64,000 nucleotides of DNA from Promethearchaeota archaeon (GCA_016926735.1 JAFGOA010000187.1:7334-71333), one strand, 5' to 3'. Positions 3,345 through 48,065 are shown, counted from the first letter of the stretch. Program-made: numbers and translations. Notes: generated by a model not told the origin, from the letters alone.

Positions 3345-5582
3345 CTAAACAAATAATCCTTCTTGTTTTTCATCTTTAATTTTTCTACGTTTTAGTTTAG
3401 TAGCAAATTCTTCATACCATTTCAAAATTTCTGGTGTTATTGCAGGATGTACTTCTTCTTTTGATTCTTTAAAATGTTCAATAGAGACTTTACGAGCTCT
3501 TACATTCTCCCTAAGTGCTGTCATAGCGGCTTCTCGACACCAAGTTTCTAAATCTGCTCCAGAAAACCCTTCTGTCATCTCTACTAATTCTCTTAACTCT
3601 ACATTCGTAGCTAATGGCATATCTTTACTAAAAATCCTTAAAATTTCTAATCTTTCATCCTTATTTGGAGGTGGAACAAATAAAATACGATCGATTCTTC
3701 CAGGTCTAATTAAGGCAGGATCCAGAATATCTGGTCTATTTGTAGCAGCTATTACTACTATATCTTTCATAACCTCAAGCCCATCTAATTCTGTTAAAAA
3801 TTGCGATAATACTTTTTCAGTTACTCCTGAATCAGATGTATATCGTCCTCTGGTTGGAGCAATGGAATCAAATTCATCAAAAAATATAATACATGGAGCC
3901 GCCATTTTTGCTTTTCTAAATACTTCTCGAATTGCTTTTTCACTTTCTCCAACCCATTTCGATAATAATTCTGGTCCTTTTATTGAAATAAAATTTGCTT
4001 TACTTTCAGTAGCAATTGCTCTAGCTAATAAGGTTTTACCGCAGCCTGGAGGACCATATAATAGAACTCCCTTAGGAGGATCAATTCCCATACGTTTAAA
4101 GATATTAGGGTGAGATAATGGCCAATCTACAGCTTCTAATAATTTTTGTTTTAGGTCTTCTAATCCTCCAACACGAGACCAGTTTACATTTGGTATTTCA
4201 ACAAACACCTCTCTAATCCCTGAAGGAAGTACTTCTTTAAGAGCTTGTTCGAAATCCTCTCTTGTTACTTGAATTTGTTCTAAGAGTTCTGGATCGATAA
4301 TTTCAGATTCTAAATCTATACTTGGTAAATATCTTCTTAAAGCGGACATCGCAGCTTCCCTGCACACAGCAGAAATATCTGCTCCTACAAATCCATGTGT
4401 GATTTGTGAAAAGTCTTTTATTAATAATATTTTATTGTCAAGTGGCATATTTCTGGTGTGAATTTGAAAGATCTCTCTTCTTCCTTTTTCATTTGGAACT
4501 TTAATTTCAATTTCTCTATCAAATCTTCCTGGTCTTCTTAAAGCAGAATCTAAGCTATTAGGCCTATTTGTAGCTCCAATAACTATAACTCTTCCACGAC
4601 TATGTAATCCATCCATTAATGCTAATAATTGAGCAACAACTCTTCTTTCTACTTCTCCTGTAACTGTCTCTCTTTTAGGTGCTATAGCATCGATTTCATC
4701 AATAAATATTATAGATGGGCTTTTTTCTTCTGCTTCTATAAATATTTTTCTTAATTTCTTTTCTGATTCCCCATAAAATTTGCTCATTATTTCTGGACCA
4801 TTTATAGAAATAAAATTAGCTTCACTTTCATTTGCAACAACTCTTGCGAGTAGTGTTTTACCGCATCCTGGTGGACCACGTAGCAAGACACCCTTTGGTG
4901 GATCAATTCCTAAGCGCTTAAATAATGATGGATGTCTGAGTGGTAACTCTACCATTTCTCGAACTCTTTGTATTTCACGATCTAATCCTCCTACATCTTC
5001 ATAAGTGATATAACTTGCACTTTTTTCTTCCTCCTCAGTTATATGTTCACTAATACTAAGGGTTGTCTCTTGTTTTATAATACATACTCCTTTAGGTCTA
5101 AGATTAATAACCTTGAATGTTATTTCTCTACTAATTCCAATAGAAATTAAAATAATATCATCTAAAGTTACTGGGTAATTGCTGAGTTTTCTTTTAACAA
5201 ATGTTTCAAATCGAGGATTACTTCTTATTCTTACACTTGCAGGGGCTAATACCACATTCTGGGCAATTATTGCTTCTACTTTCTGTATTTCTACAGTATC
5301 ATCTATACTTGTTCCAGTATTTTTTCTTAAACGAGAATCTACTCGAACAATTCCTAAACCATTATCTTGTGGATAACTAGGCCAAGCAATACCTGCACTT
5401 TCTTTTTTACCTCTAAGGGCGATAACATCACCTGTCTGAATATTTAATTCTTCCATTGTTTTTGGATCTATTCTTATGATATTCCGTCCTATATCTCTTT
5501 TCTTCGCTTTTTGAATTCGAAGAGTTACTTTTGGAAGCTCCTCGTTATCTTTCTTATTATCTTTACTATCAGAACTAGTCAT
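3345..5582 (-). CDS. cdc48: CDC48/p97/VAT double AAA+ ATPase
   Basis: N-domain plus two AAA modules (GPPGCGKT twice; IDEID and FDEFD; RPGRFDR and RPGRIDR). Hydrophobic C-terminal tail GLFV. Confidence 0.97.
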
Positions 5583-29502: not shown

Positions 29503-30573
29503 CTAATTTCCCTTATGTTGTTCTCTGAACCATTGAATCGTCTTTTTCAACCCCTCTTTTAACGGAGTTTTAGGTTCCCAATTGAGTATATTTCTTGCTT
29601 TTTTAATATCAGCACTCCTTCTTTTGGGATCATCAATAGGAAGACCTTTAAATATTACTTTGGAATTTGAATTAGTTAATTCGATTATAACATTAGCCAA
29701 CTCTAAAATAGTATATTCTTTATCATTACCTATGTTGATTACTTCGCCAATTGCATTATCATTATATACCATTTTTAGAATTCCTTCTATTTGATCTGAT
29801 ACATATAAAAATGAACGAGTTTGAGAGCCATCTCCAAAAACAGTTATATCTAAATCATTTATTGCTTGATAAATAAAATTAGGAACAACTCTTCCAAACT
29901 CAGGACCATATCTAATTCTTGGCCCTGAAGTATTGAAAATTCTCACAATTTTTGTTTCTAAATTGTGTTGTAATTCATAAGCTTTAATAAAAGCTTCTCC
30001 TGCTCTCTTTGATTCATCATAACAGCTTCTAGGTCCTACAGGATTAACATGCCCAAAATATGATTCTGGAGTTGGAATTGCATCATCTGGAGGGTCACCA
30101 TAAACCTCAGAAGTACTTGTATAGAAAAATAATGCATTATGTGTTTTTGCTATACCTAATGCATTCATTGTCCCTAAGGTGTTACTTTTTAATATCGAAA
30201 TTGGAAAATCTTTAAATTCAAAAGGAGAAGCTCTACTTGCCATATGCATTACAATATCAATCTTTTTGATATTACTCAAGCATATTCCATTTGGATGACT
30301 ACTGATTCCAAAATATATTGGTTTGGAAATGTCATGGTAAATAAAGCGAAAATTATTTTTATTAATCAAGTGAATAATATTATCTTTTGATCCAGAGGCA
30401 TAATTATCTAAACAAATACAGTTTGCTTTTTGTTTAACTAAAACATCACAAACCCATGAACCCAAAAATCCTGTACCACCAGTAACAAGAATTGTCTTGT
30501 TTTCAAATGATACACCCTCATCTAATAATCTTTTATTAATATCATTGATGTCATTACTGATACTATAATCCAT
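29503..30573 (-). CDS. UDP-glucuronate decarboxylase-like extended SDR
   Basis: GGTGFLG, STSEVYG, RSCYDESKR and GDGSQTRSF. Confidence 0.92.
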   Translation of the reverse strand: MDYSISNDINDINKRLLDEGVSFENKTILVTGGTGFLGSWVCDVLVKQKANCICLDNYASGSKDNIIHLINKNNFRFIYHDISKPIYFGISSHPNGICLSNIKKIDIVMHMASRASPFEFKDFPISILKSNTLGTMNALGIAKTHNALFFYTSTSEVYGDPPDDAIPTPESYFGHVNPVGPRSCYDESKRAGEAFIKAYELQHNLETKIVRIFNTSGPRIRYGPEFGRVVPNFIYQAINDLDITVFGDGSQTRSFLYVSDQIEGILKMVYNDNAIGEVINIGNDKEYTILELANVIIELTNSNSKVIFKGLPIDDPKRRSADIKKARNILNWEPKTPLKEGLKKTIQWFREQHKGN

Positions 30574-40234: not shown

Positions 40235-42175
40235 TTGCCTACTATGGATAGACGATTCATTGATGAGGAAGGTAAAGTATTAATGTTAGGAAATGAAGCA
40301 ATTATAAGGGGATGTTTAGAAGTAGGTGTAAGCTTTGTTTCCCAATATCCTGGAACACCAACAAGTGATATAGGTGAGACCTTTCAGAAATTACTGAGAG
40401 AACAACCGGAATTACAAAATTATTTAGTACATCATTGGGGTATCAATGAAGCTGTAGCCTCCTCTGAATGTGCGGGAGCCGCCTGGACAGGTTGTAAATC
40501 ATTAAATCCAATGAAACATGTAGGATTAAATGTTGCAAGTGATCCTTTAAGTGTTATTGCTCTTAATGGACCCAACCCTGGGGCAATGGTAATATTAGTT
40601 GGTTCTGATCCTGGGAGTTTGGGATCTCATCAAGAACAAAATGAACGATTTTATACTTGGATGTTTCATTTTCCTTGCTTTGAGCCTCATACACCTCAAG
40701 ATTGTAAAGATTATATCAAACTAGCTTTCAAATTATCTGAACAATATGATACTGTTTTTGAAATAAGAACTTCAACAAGAAGTGCCCACTCTAGAGGTTT
40801 TGTTAATTTAGAGCCTATAATAAAAGGAAAGAAAAAAGGAGAATTTATAAGAAATATTCCAAAATATAATTCTCTCCCTCCTCATGCAATTAATAATCAC
40901 ATAAGACTTTACGAAAGAATTGAAAAGCTAAGAGAAATTATACCAAAATTAGGAGTAAATAAAGTAATAGAAGGAAATAATAAAATAGGGATTATAACTA
41001 GTGGAATGCCTTATGGATATACTTTGGAAGCATTAGATCAATTAGGATTAAATGATGTACCTATATTAAAATTAGGACTAATCTATCCATTAAATTATAA
41101 TGAAATTTCAGATTTTCTTAAAGATTTAGATAAAGTTATAATAATAGAAGAATTAGAACCCTTTTTAGAAGTAAAAATATCAGAAATTGCACATAAAAAG
41201 GCAATTAATGTTGAAATAATCGGTGAAAAATATTTTCCTAAATCAAATGAATTTTCTACGGGATTAGTTGCATCATGTTTAGCAAAAATATTTAAAAAAG
41301 AACCAAGTAATCAAATGATAAAAGCTATTGATTATTTTAATTCATATAAAAACATAATTCCAAGTAGGTTTCCCTCTTTTTGTGCTGGATGTCCAGAAAG
41401 AGCAACGCTCTATACAATTCTTAAAGCAACTAATCAGTTAGAAAATACAGTAGTATGTGGTGATATTGGATGTTTTGTAATGAGTTTTTTTCCTCCTCAA
41501 CAATGCAGTGATTTAGTAATTTGTATGTCAGGTGGACTAAGTGCGGCAATCGGTATGTCTACAAAAACAGATCAAAAAGTTATTGCCTATATGGGAGACT
41601 CAACTTTTTTACACACTGGAATGAGTCCATTAGCTGAAGCGGCAAGTTATGATTCAAATATACTATTATTTATCTTTGAAAATAGTTGGACAGCTATGAC
41701 TGGCCATCAACCAGTACTAGGATTGATTGAAAAAAGAATATCTATTGAAAAAATCTGTAAAGCAATTGGAGTACAATGGCTCAGAGTTGAAGATTCTTAT
41801 AACCCAAAAAAATTAATCTCAAGTATAGAGAAAGCATTTGAGACTAAGGGGCTTAAAGTAATTATAGTAAAAAGAGAATGTGCTCTACAGGCTCATAGAT
41901 GGAGAATGAAACAAAGAAGAGAATTAAATAATCAAGGCAAAAGAACACAAGAGGTTATGTATCATATTACGGGGTGTCAGATGTGTTATGAATGCGCTCG
42001 TATATTGAGTTGTCCTGCAATAAGAAAAATTGAAAAAGATGGATATGAAACCATGCAAATTGACGATGATAGATGTGTAAAATGTGGTGTCTGTTATGAA
42101 GTTTGTCCTAATGGAGCCATTCATAAATCTATTATTAATGCTTTAGATGAAGAAGTTCCCTTTCGAGAACTCTGA
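40235..42175 (+). CDS. iorA: Indolepyruvate:ferredoxin oxidoreductase alpha subunit
   Basis: MLGNEA, YPGTP, MKHVGLNVA.D, FCAGCP, GDIGC, GDSTFLH.G, TAMTG.Q and C-terminal 2x[4Fe-4S] cysteines. Confidence 0.93.
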   Translation: MPTMDRRFIDEEGKVLMLGNEAIIRGCLEVGVSFVSQYPGTPTSDIGETFQKLLREQPELQNYLVHHWGINEAVASSECAGAAWTGCKSLNPMKHVGLNVASDPLSVIALNGPNPGAMVILVGSDPGSLGSHQEQNERFYTWMFHFPCFEPHTPQDCKDYIKLAFKLSEQYDTVFEIRTSTRSAHSRGFVNLEPIIKGKKKGEFIRNIPKYNSLPPHAINNHIRLYERIEKLREIIPKLGVNKVIEGNNKIGIITSGMPYGYTLEALDQLGLNDVPILKLGLIYPLNYNEISDFLKDLDKVIIIEELEPFLEVKISEIAHKKAINVEIIGEKYFPKSNEFSTGLVASCLAKIFKKEPSNQMIKAIDYFNSYKNIIPSRFPSFCAGCPERATLYTILKATNQLENTVVCGDIGCFVMSFFPPQQCSDLVICMSGGLSAAIGMSTKTDQKVIAYMGDSTFLHTGMSPLAEAASYDSNILLFIFENSWTAMTGHQPVLGLIEKRISIEKICKAIGVQWLRVEDSYNPKKLISSIEKAFETKGLKVIIVKRECALQAHRWRMKQRRELNNQGKRTQEVMYHITGCQMCYECARILSCPAIRKIEKDGYETMQIDDDRCVKCGVCYEVCPNGAIHKSIINALDEEVPFREL

Positions 42176-42364: not shown

Positions 42365-43279
42365 ATGGATATACCGAATAAAAAACCTTCAAAAAAAATA
42401 TGCTATTTCCTTGATACTGATGAAACTGCTTCTCCTTTTGACATCAATATGGCTTATGATGCGGGATTTGATGTGGTTGTCCCGTTTAATAATATGACAG
42501 CCGATAAAGTCCCAAGACTGATACAAGACGCTATTTTTTCCAGAAAACCAAATGCTTCTACTGCCTTTTTTATTGGGGGAGAGGATACAAAAGAAGCAGA
42601 TAAAATTGTTAATAAAGTCTTGGAATCATTTGTTCCTCCTTTTGAATGCCCTGTGATTGTTGATCCACGAGGATCACATACTACTGCTTCAGCAATAATT
42701 GCTAAAATTATAAAGATAGCTAAAGAACACGGAATTGAAAATTTATCTGGGAAAAAAATGGTAATTTTAGGAGCAACTGGTCCAGTAGGAAAGATTGGAG
42801 CTCTTCTTTCGGCTAATCTTAATTGCAATACAGTCATTACCTCTAGAAGAGAACAATATATAATGACATTAGCGAAAGAACTTAATGAGAACACAAATAA
42901 TGGTGCGTCTGAAATAATTGGAGCTGTTGGAGCTACAGATGATGATAAATATAATGTTTTAAAAGATGCAGATTTAATTTGCTCAGTTGCGAAAGCTGGT
43001 ATTGAAATGATCTCAAAAGAACTACTAGAAAAATTACCTCCTAAAAAAATAGTCGTAGATATTAATTTAGTCCCTCCCTATGGTATCTATGGTCTAAAAC
43101 CTAATTATGATAATGAGGAACTAATATCAGGAATTTTTGGGATAGGTGCTCTAGCAATTGGGAATCTCAAATCTAAAATTGAAAAGGCTATGTTAATAGA
43201 AGCATCTAATACAACAGGGAGAAAAATATTTGATTATAAAAATGCATTTAATTCAGCTAAATTGTTACTTAATATTTGA
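42365..43279 (+). CDS. NAD(P)-dependent methylene-H4MPT/H4F dehydrogenase (MtdA/B-like), copy 1
   Basis: SPFDINMAYDAG, AIFSR, DPRGSHTTA, GATGPVG, DINLVPPYG and GALAIG. Confidence 0.88.
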   Translation: MDIPNKKPSKKICYFLDTDETASPFDINMAYDAGFDVVVPFNNMTADKVPRLIQDAIFSRKPNASTAFFIGGEDTKEADKIVNKVLESFVPPFECPVIVDPRGSHTTASAIIAKIIKIAKEHGIENLSGKKMVILGATGPVGKIGALLSANLNCNTVITSRREQYIMTLAKELNENTNNGASEIIGAVGATDDDKYNVLKDADLICSVAKAGIEMISKELLEKLPPKKIVVDINLVPPYGIYGLKPNYDNEELISGIFGIGALAIGNLKSKIEKAMLIEASNTTGRKIFDYKNAFNSAKLLLNI

Positions 43280-43667: not shown

Positions 43668-44618
43668 ATGGAACTATTAAAATTAAAATCAAATGAAAAG
43701 ACTATTAATATGATTAAAAAAGATAAAACAGCTAATATATGCTATTTTTTTGATACTGATGAATATGCTTCTCCTTTTGATATCAATATGGCTTATGATT
43801 CAGGTTATGATATTGTCATTCCTTTCAATCATATGAGTAGTAAAAAAGTTCCTAAGCTGGTTCAAGATGCTATTTTTTCCAGACGGAAATATAATTCTTC
43901 AATTTTCTTTATCGGGGGAAGTGATACGCAGGAAGCAGATTTAATCGCTAAAAATATTTTTAATTCTCTGGTACCACCATTTGAATATCCTATTGTCTTA
44001 GATCCCCGAGGATCTCATTCTACAGCCTCGGCCATAGCTGCTAAAACTCTTAGTATTTTAGGAAATATTAATAACAAAAAGATTGTAATTTTAGGAACGG
44101 GTCCAGTTGCTAGAATGGCTGCTTTATTAGGTGCTAAACTTAATGCTAAAATTAATATCGTGGAAACATGGAATAAAGTGGATTTAAAACAATTTAATGA
44201 AATTATAAAAAATCTAAAAAAGGAGTGTAAACAAGAAGAGAATAACCGAATTAATGGAAATTGTGCTTTTTCTGAAGAAGATCGTTTGGTAATAATAAAA
44301 GATGCAGATATTATTTGGTCACTGGCGGCACCTGGAATACAGATCCTTTCAGAGGAAATTATGAGTAATTTAAACAACAGTCAATTAGTAATTGATGCAA
44401 ATTTAGTACCTCCCTATGGAATTTATGGATTAAAACCTAAAGATGATAATAAAGAAATATATCCTGGAATTTTTGGAGTTGGAGCATTAGTAATTGGAAA
44501 ATTAAAATATAAGATTGAGTCTTTGATATTAAAAAAAGCAATGAATTCTGCAACAAAAACACTTTATGATTATAATTATGGATTTGAAATAGCATTGAAA
44601 TTATTAAATTTAAATTAA
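43668..44618 (+). CDS. MtdA/B-like dehydrogenase, copy 2
   Basis: SPFDINMAYDSG, DPRGSHSTA, GTGPVA and DANLVPPYG. Confidence 0.85.
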   Translation: MELLKLKSNEKTINMIKKDKTANICYFFDTDEYASPFDINMAYDSGYDIVIPFNHMSSKKVPKLVQDAIFSRRKYNSSIFFIGGSDTQEADLIAKNIFNSLVPPFEYPIVLDPRGSHSTASAIAAKTLSILGNINNKKIVILGTGPVARMAALLGAKLNAKINIVETWNKVDLKQFNEIIKNLKKECKQEENNRINGNCAFSEEDRLVIIKDADIIWSLAAPGIQILSEEIMSNLNNSQLVIDANLVPPYGIYGLKPKDDNKEIYPGIFGVGALVIGKLKYKIESLILKKAMNSATKTLYDYNYGFEIALKLLNLN

Positions 44619-44908: not shown

Positions 44909-45862
44909 ATGGAATTATTGGAAATAAAACCTGATAAAAGATTAATTAAAGTTATAGAAAAAGAAAAACAAACTGATATTATATGCTATTTTTTTGATAC
45001 AGATGAATATGCCTCTCCATTTGACATAAATATGGCTTATGATGCTGGAATAGATAATGTTTTACCTTATAGTAATGTGAAAGCTAATTATGTTCCAAAA
45101 TTAATAAATCAACTTATTTTTTCTAGAAAAATATGTTCTAGAACAATCTTTTTTGTTGGAGGAAGCAAAACAAATGAAGCTGATTTGATTGCTAAAAATA
45201 TTTATCATTCATTAGTAGCTCCTTTCAATTTTCCTATCATAATTGATCCTAGAGGGTCTCATACAACTGCCTCAGCGATTATAGCAACAATGATTAAAGC
45301 TATAAAAAATTTAAAGAATAAAAATATTGTAATATTAGGAACCGGTCCTACAGCAAGAATATTAGCAATATTAGCAGCCAGATTAAAAGCAAAAATAGTT
45401 ATGTTCGAAACATTGAAAAACGTTAATCAAAATTATATAAACGATCTCAATTTTGAATTAAGTGAAAAATTAGCTCAAGATTTTAAAAATCTAACTATTT
45501 ATTGCAATTCTAACGATATTATTGACCGATTTGACCTAATCAAAAATGCAGATATAATTTGTTCTCTTGTGGCACCTGGAGTAGAGATTTTACCTGTTCA
45601 TATAATTAAAAAATTAAAGAGCCCAAAATTAATTATTGATGGAAATATGGTACCTCCTTATGGTGTGTGGGGATTAAATCCAAATGATAATAATAAAGAA
45701 ATTTATCCAGGGATTTTTGGTATTGGCGCATTAATCATAGGTAATTTAAAGTATAAAATAGAATCTCTTATTTTGAAAGAAGCCATGAAATCTAGTATAA
45801 AAAGAATTTTTAATTATAATTACGCATTTAATATCGCTTTAAAATTACTTAATTTAAAATAA
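44909..45862 (+). CDS. MtdA/B-like dehydrogenase, copy 3
   Basis: SPFDINMAYDAG, DPRGSHTTA, GTGPTA and DGNMVPPYG. SD GAGGTGA upstream. Confidence 0.85.
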   Translation: MELLEIKPDKRLIKVIEKEKQTDIICYFFDTDEYASPFDINMAYDAGIDNVLPYSNVKANYVPKLINQLIFSRKICSRTIFFVGGSKTNEADLIAKNIYHSLVAPFNFPIIIDPRGSHTTASAIIATMIKAIKNLKNKNIVILGTGPTARILAILAARLKAKIVMFETLKNVNQNYINDLNFELSEKLAQDFKNLTIYCNSNDIIDRFDLIKNADIICSLVAPGVEILPVHIIKKLKSPKLIIDGNMVPPYGVWGLNPNDNNKEIYPGIFGIGALIIGNLKYKIESLILKEAMKSSIKRIFNYNYAFNIALKLLNLK

Positions 45863-45979: not shown

Positions 45980-46768
45980 TTATATAAATAATTTTATAAT
46001 TAAAAAGATTCCAATTCCTATACCATAAATAGGAATAACATATTTCCAGAATTTATTTGGTATAACTCTTACAAGATATGGAGATATTAAGGCAGCAAAA
46101 AACCCTCCTGTGAAAAGTGAAGGTAAAAGAATGAGATCAACAATTATTCCAAAATTTTGAATCAAATAGAAACAAAAAATACCAACTATTGAAACAATAC
46201 TTTCTGAAAAAGAAACAATAGCTGTAGCGCTTTTTTCATAAATACCTGAATGAATTTGTCCTAATGTAATTATTGGACCATAACCTCCTCCTCCAATTCC
46301 TTTATTAAAACCTGCTATTGCTGAAAAACCGATTAATAATTTACGATTTAATTTATTTTGTTGATCTTTTTTAATTATTAATTTTAGAATTGCAACTCCT
46401 CCCATAATAACTACTAAAATAGCTACATATGCTTTAATAAAAATGGTTGGCAAATGAAATGCAAGATATGTAATTATAATTGAAGCAAATATTGCAATAC
46501 ATCCACAAAATGCAAAAATTAATCCGAATTTTGTAGCCTCATTTAATGGTTTGAATGAATAACGAACATTTCCTAATTCATGATCAAAAAATGTATCAAT
46601 TATTCCTGTTATTGTTTCAGAAATAAGTATTGTTGGTACTACTTGAAGAGGAGAAAATCCATATAATAACAATAATGGGGATAATGCAGTTCCAAAACCC
46701 ATACCTGCCATTGAGTCCATAGATTCAAAAATAAAAGCTAAAATTATAATATCCCAAAATAAATCCAT
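45980..46768 (-). CDS. TauE/SafE-family (sulfite exporter-like) membrane protein
   Basis: DSMAGMGFG...P.LLL.G, second repeat GIGGGGYGP, about 8 TM. Confidence 0.88.
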   Translation of the reverse strand: MDLFWDIIILAFIFESMDSMAGMGFGTALSPLLLLYGFSPLQVVPTILISETITGIIDTFFDHELGNVRYSFKPLNEATKFGLIFAFCGCIAIFASIIITYLAFHLPTIFIKAYVAILVVIMGGVAILKLIIKKDQQNKLNRKLLIGFSAIAGFNKGIGGGGYGPIITLGQIHSGIYEKSATAIVSFSESIVSIVGIFCFYLIQNFGIIVDLILLPSLFTGGFFAALISPYLVRVIPNKFWKYVIPIYGIGIGIFLIIKLFI

Positions 46769-47360: not shown

Positions 47361-48065
47361 ATGAGCTTTAAAGAAACTGATATTATTAATATTGTTGTAG
47401 CAGGAACTGCCGGACAGGGAGTTATTTCAGTTAAACGATTAATTGAATTTGCAGCTCAAAAAGCAGGCGCAGAGCGAATTCTTGGAAGTGAAATCTTTAT
47501 TTAGTTAGAATAAAGACATTTAATGCATGGACTCGCTCAGAGAGAAGGTGCTATAACAAGTCATACACGATATCAAAAGAAATTGTTCAATAATCCTCGT
47601 AAAGATTTGCAATCTTCATTAATCTGCTATGGAGATGCGGATATTTATATTTGTCTCGAACCAGTTGAAGCTTTGAGAAGAGGTATTTTTGCTTCGGAAA
47701 AGACAACTTTTGTAATAAATTCAAGAACAATTCCTGGTGTAATGATAACTGCTGGTCTGGAAAAATACCCATCATTAGATAAAATTAAAGAAACTTTGAT
47801 AGGTAATGCTAAAGATGTTTATTTTATAAATGCTACTGAAATATCTTTAGAATATTTCAAACAAAATCAGCAAGTAAATATAATAATGTTAGGTTTTGCT
47901 ATATCAACTAATAAATTACCTTTTATCGAAATAGATCATTATGAAGATGTAATTAAAGAATGGCTAAAAGATCCTGAAATAAATATTAAAGCATTGCATT
48001 TAGGTATCGAAAAAGGTAAAGAAATAATCGAAAAAATGAATTTAAATCCAGACAAGATAGAATAA
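47361..48065 (+). CDS. iorB: Indolepyruvate:ferredoxin oxidoreductase beta subunit, two exons (47361-47492 + 47523-48065), 224 aa if spliced
   Basis: Exon 1 IVVAGTAGQGVI...ILGSE and exon 2 MHGLAQREG...LEPVEALR...NIIMLG are in the same frame, separated by a 30-nt stop-containing insert. Confidence 0.88.
47493..47522 (+). other. Candidate BHB-type intron in iorB mRNA
   Basis: Central helix AGTG/CATT, bulges AA|A and TA|A, inner stem TCTTTATT/AATAAAGA. In-frame TAG and TAA lie inside. Confidence 0.8.

Follow-up and report, generated by a model that had tools for sequence, protein, structure and literature searches.

Within a 64,000-nt stretch of the genome of Promethearchaeota archaeon GCA_016926735.1 (the whole stretch is called the window and its numbering is used throughout; the 3.88-Mb genome is labelled G000), the protein-coding gene iorB is interrupted by 30 nt, positions 47493–47522, that very likely form an archaeal bulge-helix-bulge (BHB) intron of the type cut by the tRNA-splicing endonuclease EndA. 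An earlier note on this stretch had read the insert as a tRNA-type BHB intron in the mRNA of an Asgard iorB, and the core of that reading is supported by the sequence comparisons presented here. Following the iorB lead revealed at least six more interrupted genes, essential single-copy ones among them, and archaea of this family very probably splice messenger RNAs.

iorB is split by a 30-nt insert

The gene is laid out as two open pieces around the insert:

47361–47492, plus strand: iorB exon 1, 44 codons, opening MSFKETDIINIVVAGTAGQG and ending ...ILGSE; matches the N-terminal positions of IorB profiles and aligns to residues 1–44 of 216-aa orthologues
47493–47522, plus strand: candidate intron, 30 nt, with in-frame TAG (47502–47504) and TAA (47511–47513); inserts of 30 or 31 nt lie at the same site in 21 genomes
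47523–48065, plus strand: iorB exon 2, 180 codons plus stop (48063–48065), starting MHGLAQREG

We confirmed in the sequence every coordinate that the earlier note had claimed, from the ATG at 47361 through exon 1, the insert, TAG 47502 and TAA 47511 to the resumed frame, and the observation of a split iorB is real at each of them. The ATG at 47523 is in frame with that at 47361 (difference 162), and the last codon of exon 1 is the GAA at 47490–47492, such that the insert separates the codons for GSE from those for MHG. A mechanical list of open reading frames (ORFs) gives the gene as two pieces, of 53 and 180 aa.

The assignment to the IorB family also held. Exon 2 matches the Pfam family POR (PF01558, E 8.9e-14) over profile positions 29–173 of 173, and NCBIfam IorB equivalogs match both pieces, the exon 1 piece at profile positions ~1–36 and the exon 2 piece from ~36–42 onward. 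The best NCBIfam IorB score, with the two pieces scored separately, was 89.9 bits against full-length cut-offs of 206–348. Two hallmarks of IorB are present, AGTAGQG within exon 1 and the SEMHGLAQRE motif, which straddles the junction.

The junction can fold as a bulge-helix-bulge

The sequence around the insert contains each part of a BHB motif:

47472–47486, plus strand: outer helix h, 5' strand, exon 1 sequence; pairs with 47524–47538
47487–47490, plus strand: central helix H, 5' strand, 4 bp, exon 1; pairs with 47517–47520
47491–47493, plus strand: 5' bulge, 3 nt; predicted cut between 47492 and 47493, yielding the junction of intronless orthologues
47494–47516, plus strand: inner hairpin h', stem 47494–47502 with 47508–47516, loop 47503–47507; in both minimum free energy (MFE) and centroid structures
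47517–47520, plus strand: central helix H, 3' strand, intron sequence; pairs with 47487–47490
47521–47523, plus strand: 3' bulge, 3 nt; predicted cut between 47522 and 47523
47524–47538, plus strand: outer helix h, 3' strand, exon 2 sequence; pairs with 47472–47486

The central helix proposed earlier (A47487-U47520, G47488-U47519, U47489-A47518 and G47490-C47517), both 3-nt bulges and the 8-bp inner stem (47494–47501 with 47509–47516) are all present, and a U-G pair lengthens the inner stem to 9 bp. The outer helix had been called weak; instead, 12 of its 15 positions pair, including a perfect 6-bp block (47472–47477 with 47533–47538). Both the outer helix and the 9-bp inner stem are in the MFE fold of 47470–47545 (-20 kcal/mol, z = -2.9), a stability matched by 4 of 200 shuffles. 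Cutting after the second base of each bulge, as the earlier note had proposed, gives GSE/MHG, colinear with 25 sequenced intronless loci.

In the proposed mechanism, exon 1 and exon 2 would pair in the transcript as the outer helix, the last bases of exon 1 would pair with the 3' end of the intron as the 4-bp central helix, and the remainder of the intron would form a hairpin. The resulting fold would present two 3-nt bulges on opposite strands, and a heteromeric EndA made of two paralogues would cut after the second base of each. An RtcB-type ligase would then join the exons into an mRNA reading ...ILGSE-MHGLAQREG..., which would encode a full-length IorB of 224 aa.

The insert is present in some orthologues and absent in others

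The 120 nearest database proteins all come from metagenome-assembled genomes (MAGs) labelled Lokiarchaeota or Promethearchaeota, which bears out the description of the source as Asgard-like. Most of them (89 of 120) are continuous across the junction, with GSEMHG or a variant, mostly ...GSEMHGLAQREG.... Another 28, the window's own protein included, begin exactly at MHGLAQREG, so the predicted mis-annotation of such genes is seen in database records that start at the second exon. The last three carry a short N-terminal extension that ends ...HL before MHG and is translated out of a different insert.

A full-length orthologue served as query against 400 genomes of the phylum. Orthologues of iorB (E < ~1e-79) were confined to the window's own family, where the match covered the junction in 61 genomes. 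In 21 of these the gene is interrupted at that point, and the remainder read straight through. Nine of the 21 appear as matches with in-frame stops that are 27–30 nt too long, and 12 as matches starting at residue 43–45. The interrupted genomes span nine genera and include all four genomes of the window's genus.

For comparison we fetched the 21 interrupted loci and 25 intronless ones (46 in all; L001, identical to L015 over the region, was left out). Between two invariant peptide motifs, 25 loci have no extra nucleotides, 9 genomes have 30 and 12 have 31; the insert always falls between a Glu codon, GA[AG], and the Met codon ATG. Because a 31-nt insert shifts the frame, read-through would be unable to rescue iorB. 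Assembly artefact as the origin of the insert is ruled out, since 21 independent, diverged assemblies carry it.

On a gene tree of the 46 sequences, the presence of the insert needs at least 7 changes, compared with ~15.5 on average when labels are shuffled (0 of 500 shuffles as low). The tree is weakly resolved, such that gains and losses are indistinguishable on it, and its well-supported branches alone permit a single origin. Because the iorB inserts have loop and 3'-end motifs in common, the simplest, if tentative, reading is a single ancient insertion that was later lost precisely several times.

Both sides of the fold covary

An alignment of the 21 interrupted genomes, spanning the insert with 24 nt of exon 1 before it and 20 nt of exon 2 after it, gave 18 distinct rows, 26 pairs and 467 cells. 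Of these cells 92.1% are paired, compared with 83.5 ± 0.8% in shuffles (0 of 500 reach the observed value) and 19.9–46.0% in six slid registers. Eleven pairs have changed on both sides, a number reached by 1 of 500 shuffles, and the covariation score was 0.377 against 0.212 in shuffles (0 of 500 reach it). RNAalifold by itself predicts the outer and inner helices. Both outcomes for which the earlier note had suggested comparing orthologues, intronless alleles and compensatory changes that preserve the fold, were found.

All three helices contribute to this signal. Across the 18 distinct sequences the central helix is paired in 91.7% of cells and the outer helix in 93%, and eight of the nine inner-stem pairs show changes on both sides. 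In the central helix, 12 sequences have U-A at pair 21–51, the other 6 have C-G and none has a mispair; the U/C of this pair is the third base of the Ser codon. The exon-exon pair 11–64, which joins second and third codon positions, is U-A in 11, C-G in 5, U-G in 1 and unpaired in 1. The bulges measure 3 nt in every aligned sequence, and cuts at the second base reproduce the intronless junction.

Pairing between the exons depends on whether the insert is there. From 10 to 13 of 13 outer-helix pairs (median 12) are kept in the 21 intron-bearing alleles and from 5 to 12 (median 8) in the 25 intronless ones, a difference that a rank test overstates because kin are not independent. The higher exon-exon complementarity of interrupted alleles indicates that the RNA fold has shaped the exons only in alleles that carry the insert. 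In an mRNA host, the part of the motif contributed by the exons has to code for protein as well, and structure would thereby constrain codon choice.

These patterns also bear on translational bypassing, in which the ribosome would hop over the 30 nt as it does in phage T4 gene 60 or at the mitochondrial 'byps' of yeast. In programmed bypassing the take-off codon matches the landing codon and is followed at once by a stop, and the RNA stays uncut. The iorB insert resembles such a gap in being short, of similar size and untranslated within a coding sequence, with a hairpin at its start and stops inside. Unlike those gaps, it lacks matching take-off and landing codons (GAA, then ATC, at the start; TTA, then ATG, at the end), its first stop lies three codons past the take-off site instead of adjacent to it, and the exon-intron and exon-exon covariation would have no role in hopping. 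We consider bypassing very improbable.

Both exons are under purifying selection

Removing the insert in silico gave an intact frame of 201–224 codons in all 21 interrupted loci (three of them have no assigned start, owing to a contig end or a too-strict motif). The median ratio of nonsynonymous to synonymous substitution rates (dN/dS) was 0.089 both within the intron-bearing set (finite dS in 145 of 210 pairs) and within the intronless set (139 of 300), and 0.086 between the two (234 of 525). Synonymous differences are near saturation (pS ~0.72–0.75), and exon 1 by itself is also conserved. Pseudogene-like decay of the exons, which the earlier note had named as what would speak against its reading, was not seen.

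If iorB were a pseudogene in decay, or had neutrally acquired a small repeat, and full-length IorB were not expressed, the two in-frame stops would be accounted for, and the displacement of iorB to ~5 kb from iorA in this genus could fit as well. Such a reading is at odds with 21 frames of 21 that are otherwise intact, with a dN/dS of 0.089 at near-saturated synonymous divergence and with an intact iorA. Inserts of this kind also interrupt the single rpoB and the one aIF2-gamma that passes the family cut-off (see below), neither of which can be a dead gene. We give this explanation practically no credence and retain a spliced BHB intron as the reading of the iorB insert.

Similar inserts interrupt other genes

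In a scan of the whole of G000 for BHB motifs that, once removed, leave two open frames joined, the iorB site ranked first of 13 strict candidates. Most hits in the strict or ranked lists were rejected as adjacent genes, judged by eye from N-terminal motifs. Sister cases in G000 were picked from the ranked lists where a conserved motif crosses the predicted junction, so the list is biased towards genes with such motifs. BHB-like inserts of 29–32 nt were found in five further genes of G000 (nadE, rpoB, aIF2-gamma, a ThiF/E1-like gene and an AMP-phosphorylase-like gene) and, in relatives, in rtcB; each gene has colinear intronless orthologues:

L065:1501–1530 (G000:C143:3050–3079), minus strand: nadE, 30 nt, ...YGD then GGVD...; Pfam NAD_synthase matches at 2–143 then 144–242, exactly contiguous
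L066:1501–1530 (G000:C50:76347–76376), plus strand: AMP/thymidine-phosphorylase-like gene, 30 nt inside the Thr codon of KHS-T-GGV
L067:1501–1530 (G000:C108:9843–9872), minus strand: ThiF/E1-like gene, 30 nt inside the GxGxxG loop (...GVGAL then GCE...)
L068:1525–1556 (G000:C69:28503–28534), minus strand: rpoB, 32 nt, CCUG/CAGG central helix; spliced frame ...VVPDIPGFKIKFGK...
L069:1515–1543 (G000:C18 ~42939–42967), minus strand: aIF2-gamma, 29-nt hairpin insert in the P-loop, GHVDHG then KTTLV, with a long exon-exon helix around it
L057:359–387 (G173), with L058, L060, L061 and L062 (G164, G171, G242 and G267): rtcB in relatives, 29 nt inside the catalytic motif, between GVGY and DINCG

Like the iorB insert, these come and go among relatives. 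The nadE insert is absent in G158, G160 and G165. The AMP-phosphorylase-like insert is found in G158, G159, G160 and G165, where the stems differ yet still pair and the central helix shows a U-A to C-G swap, and is absent in G150. The ThiF/E1-like gene carries its insert in three same-genus genomes and lacks it in G150 and G165. For rpoB, which is single copy in G000 (tblastn), the 32-nt boundaries were set by comparison with intronless relatives; the spliced frame is colinear with the intronless genes of G150 and G165, and the insert also occurs in G158 and G160. MFE folding did not support the ThiF-like insert (z +0.8) or, taken overall, that of rpoB (z +0.4); what supports both is the colinearity of intronless alleles and covariation in the stems.

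With an archaeal eIF2-gamma model run over 135 family genomes, aIF2-gamma was contiguous in ~90 and carried a ~30-nt in-frame insert with stops in 5, while in ~25, including G000 and its genus, matches start at profile position 15–19. The gene is interrupted at the P-loop in ~30 of 135, and G000 has a single match over the family cut-off. Split rtcB occurs in 5 of the ~125 family genomes with the gene, from three genera, and the MFE fold of its insert has a 4-bp helix, a 3-nt bulge and a 9-bp hairpin.

Second exons in the sister genes mostly have no start codon and begin with AAG, GGT, GGA or ATA, or inside a codon. Two of the genes are moreover indispensable, and for both reasons the inserts must be removed from the RNA.

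Relaxed BHB rules, applied to contigs C1–C130, gave 374 ORF-joining hits in the true register against 328–358 in five slid registers, which indicates that there is no large hidden population at relaxed stringency; a still looser scan gave 8304 hits and was uninformative. The search for further BHB-split genes that the earlier note had suggested gave five more split genes in G000 and no clear excess under relaxed rules.

Several other loci came up beside these genes. Just upstream of nadE lies a truncated second copy resembling its exon 1 (G000:C143 ~3588–4040, minus strand; 55% identical over 151 aa). It ends at the same ...GYFTKY position with a small hairpin after it, and the genome has a single exon 2. 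We considered this copy as an alternative partner for the same 3' site and found no support for it, its end lacking the bases for the central helix; it may be left over from a duplication. By eye, a 32-nt insert with a GCGU/GCGC central helix appears to lie in a DhnA-type aldolase gene (...GAVGV-D-MGRNIFQ...; G000:C50:42170–42201, minus strand). Two candidates were set aside as not being introns. One, in an mvhD/vhuD-like gene (G000:C50, plus strand, ~73880–73930), is a single in-frame TGA at a Cys position (...IIVAG*YPGECDF...), which may be a selenocysteine codon. The other, in an ABC-transporter ATPase gene (G000:C153, plus strand, ~30340–30350), is a single in-frame TAG just before ...KKIGFIFQNPE and may reflect recoding, an error in sequencing or a nonsense mutation.

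Splicing machinery and the weighing of alternatives

G000 encodes two EndA paralogues with the tRNA-intron endonuclease catalytic domain (PF01974), on contigs C33 and C100, which fits an alpha-beta EndA that would be able to take relaxed substrates. The available part of PMC5829648 describes Asgard EndA as the broad-specificity (alpha-beta)2 type, which accepts relaxed motifs, and the same assignment is made in the accessible text of a 2026 preprint (10.64898/2026.10.13.758758). ARAGORN called 42 tRNA genes in G000, 11 of them with anticodon-loop introns of 12–61 nt, plus one call of 736 nt.

Some observations weigh against splicing of iorB by EndA and RtcB. In the fold, the outer helix beside the 3' bulge consists of one A-U pair followed by a G-G mismatch, which makes the motif slightly relaxed. 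The 4-bp central helix is missing from the RNAalifold prediction, and G206 and G198 can form only two of its four pairs. All 21 interrupted alleles have ATG as the first codon of exon 2, and 15 of the 25 intronless ones have it at the same place. Searches of the G000 assembly, rated 99% complete, with the PF01139 profile and with an RtcB protein of the same genus failed to find RtcB. Among transcript data, no listed sequencing run covers the locus as RNA, and three metatranscriptomes of the same study contained no contig on 47300–48100 (80% likeness, ~0 shared words), a result that is uninformative either way. We infer splicing itself, and with it EndA cleavage, ligation and any regulatory use, from the genomic sequence.

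The missing ligase leaves a gap in the argument. Of 26 family genomes sampled, 23 have RtcB, as do all three of the same genus, and for the latter reason its absence from G000 is most simply an assembly gap. The RNA could also be processed by another structure-specific nuclease and ligase, with the BHB-like shape serving as a mere hairpin signal; the imperfect central helices of some copies and the RtcB result would suit such a route. The geometry is nevertheless exactly that of an EndA substrate, with a 4-bp helix and two opposite 3-nt bulges, and the predicted cuts give the right frame in 21 of 21 loci. With EndA present in G000 and RtcB in three genomes of its genus, we regard a different pair of enzymes as distinctly improbable.

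The ATG at the start of every interrupted exon 2 means that iorB, taken alone, also fits what a gene split into two polypeptides would require. The insert would then be kept, and a 47-aa peptide running to the TAG would assemble into IorB with a separate exon 2 product started at ATG 47523. Gene callers already annotate a piece of 172–180 aa as a protein, and purifying selection on both pieces fits this arrangement equally well. Such a split leaves unexplained why exon and intron pair with U-A to C-G compensation, why the bulges are fixed at 3 nt and why exon-exon complementarity is confined to interrupted alleles. Nor does it extend to the sister genes, whose second exons lack start codons and whose breaks lie inside a P-loop or a GxGxxG motif. 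We judge a two-polypeptide IorB improbable, and an EndA-type intron in iorB remains the reading we prefer.

Beyond iorB, the data tilt slightly towards the view that protein-only (EndA/RtcB) mRNA splicing is a routine expression step across the whole Lokiarchaeia-type Asgard family, in which mini-introns of 29–32 nt would sit inside the most conserved motifs of core genes, with gains and losses between closely related genomes. Genes for translation, transcription and cofactors would then depend on the tRNA-splicing machinery for their expression, and maturation of the RtcB mRNA would itself need ligase activity. Eukaryotes' closest prokaryotic relatives would possess interrupted protein genes independent of the spliceosome.

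Comparison with known introns

To our knowledge, the documented archaeal pre-mRNA intron has until now been essentially that of one gene, cbf5, in one crenarchaeal group. Our full-text literature search, which covered work outside most subscription journals and outside supplements, found no report of BHB introns in Asgard protein genes. As given in the available part of PMC2738675, the cbf5 pre-mRNA intron of Crenarchaeota (Desulfurococcales and Sulfolobales) has a BHB-like motif cut between the second and third bulge bases by a hetero-oligomeric EndA with relaxed specificity, and lies at a catalytic Asp codon. As far as that account goes, the Asgard inserts share with it the predicted cut position and EndA type, the catalytic-codon site and a patchy distribution with gains or losses among relatives. 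They differ in affecting iorB and at least six other genes, in belonging to the Asgard phylum (a Lokiarchaeia-like family) and in that a single genome carries them in several genes, where the known case is one gene. For cbf5, cleavage in vitro and spliced cDNAs are described, whereas the iorB intron is known here as a genomic sequence. The mechanism is known from crenarchaeal cbf5, and the genes, the Asgard lineage and the number of affected genes appear to be new.

Archaeal tRNA and rRNA introns carry the hBHBh' motif (Marck and Grosjean 2003, as quoted in the accessible text of PMC5829648 and 10.64898/2026.10.13.758758). The iorB insert has the same motif and the same predicted enzymes, and lies in a similar length range, tRNA introns in G000 measuring 12–61 nt; unlike them, its host RNA is an mRNA. 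Another system in which a very short mRNA intron is removed by way of stem-loops without the spliceosome is that of HAC1/XBP1, where removal changes or restores the frame and the exons are sealed by a tRNA ligase (RtcB in animals). There, the nuclease is IRE1, the motif consists of twin stem-loops and the system is a stress switch. The earlier note had drawn this parallel, and the proposed iorB splicing would likewise be non-spliceosomal, act on a very short mRNA intron and restore the frame. It differs in that the motif is a BHB and the predicted nuclease is the tRNA-splicing endonuclease, not IRE1; the on/off control that the earlier note had suggested for iorB is conjecture.

If RNA data confirm the splicing, many 'truncated' or 'pseudogene' calls in Asgard MAGs would be annotation errors, and mRNA secondary structure would demonstrably limit codon choice around the insert sites. 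The lineage nearest to eukaryotes would tolerate, gain and lose protein-gene introns via enzymes that eukaryotes still use for tRNA and HAC1/XBP1 splicing, and early intron tolerance and splicing-coupled regulation would become directly testable questions.

Neighbourhood of iorB

The window contains no tRNA genes according to ARAGORN. The gene for the alpha subunit of indolepyruvate:ferredoxin oxidoreductase lies upstream of iorB:

40235–42175, plus strand: iorA, ORF of 646 codons, intact, ~5 kb upstream of iorB

Its identity is based on TIGR03336 (E 3.9e-161; G000:C4:47607–49454, equal to window 40274–42121). An iorA homologue is found immediately upstream of iorB in 40 of the 46 related loci, and the two are separated in the four loci of the window's genus. 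Here, the interval holds two tandem paralogues on the plus strand, 43668–44618 and 44909–45862 (316 and 317 aa, clearly alike), and a membrane-protein gene on the minus strand, 45980–46768.

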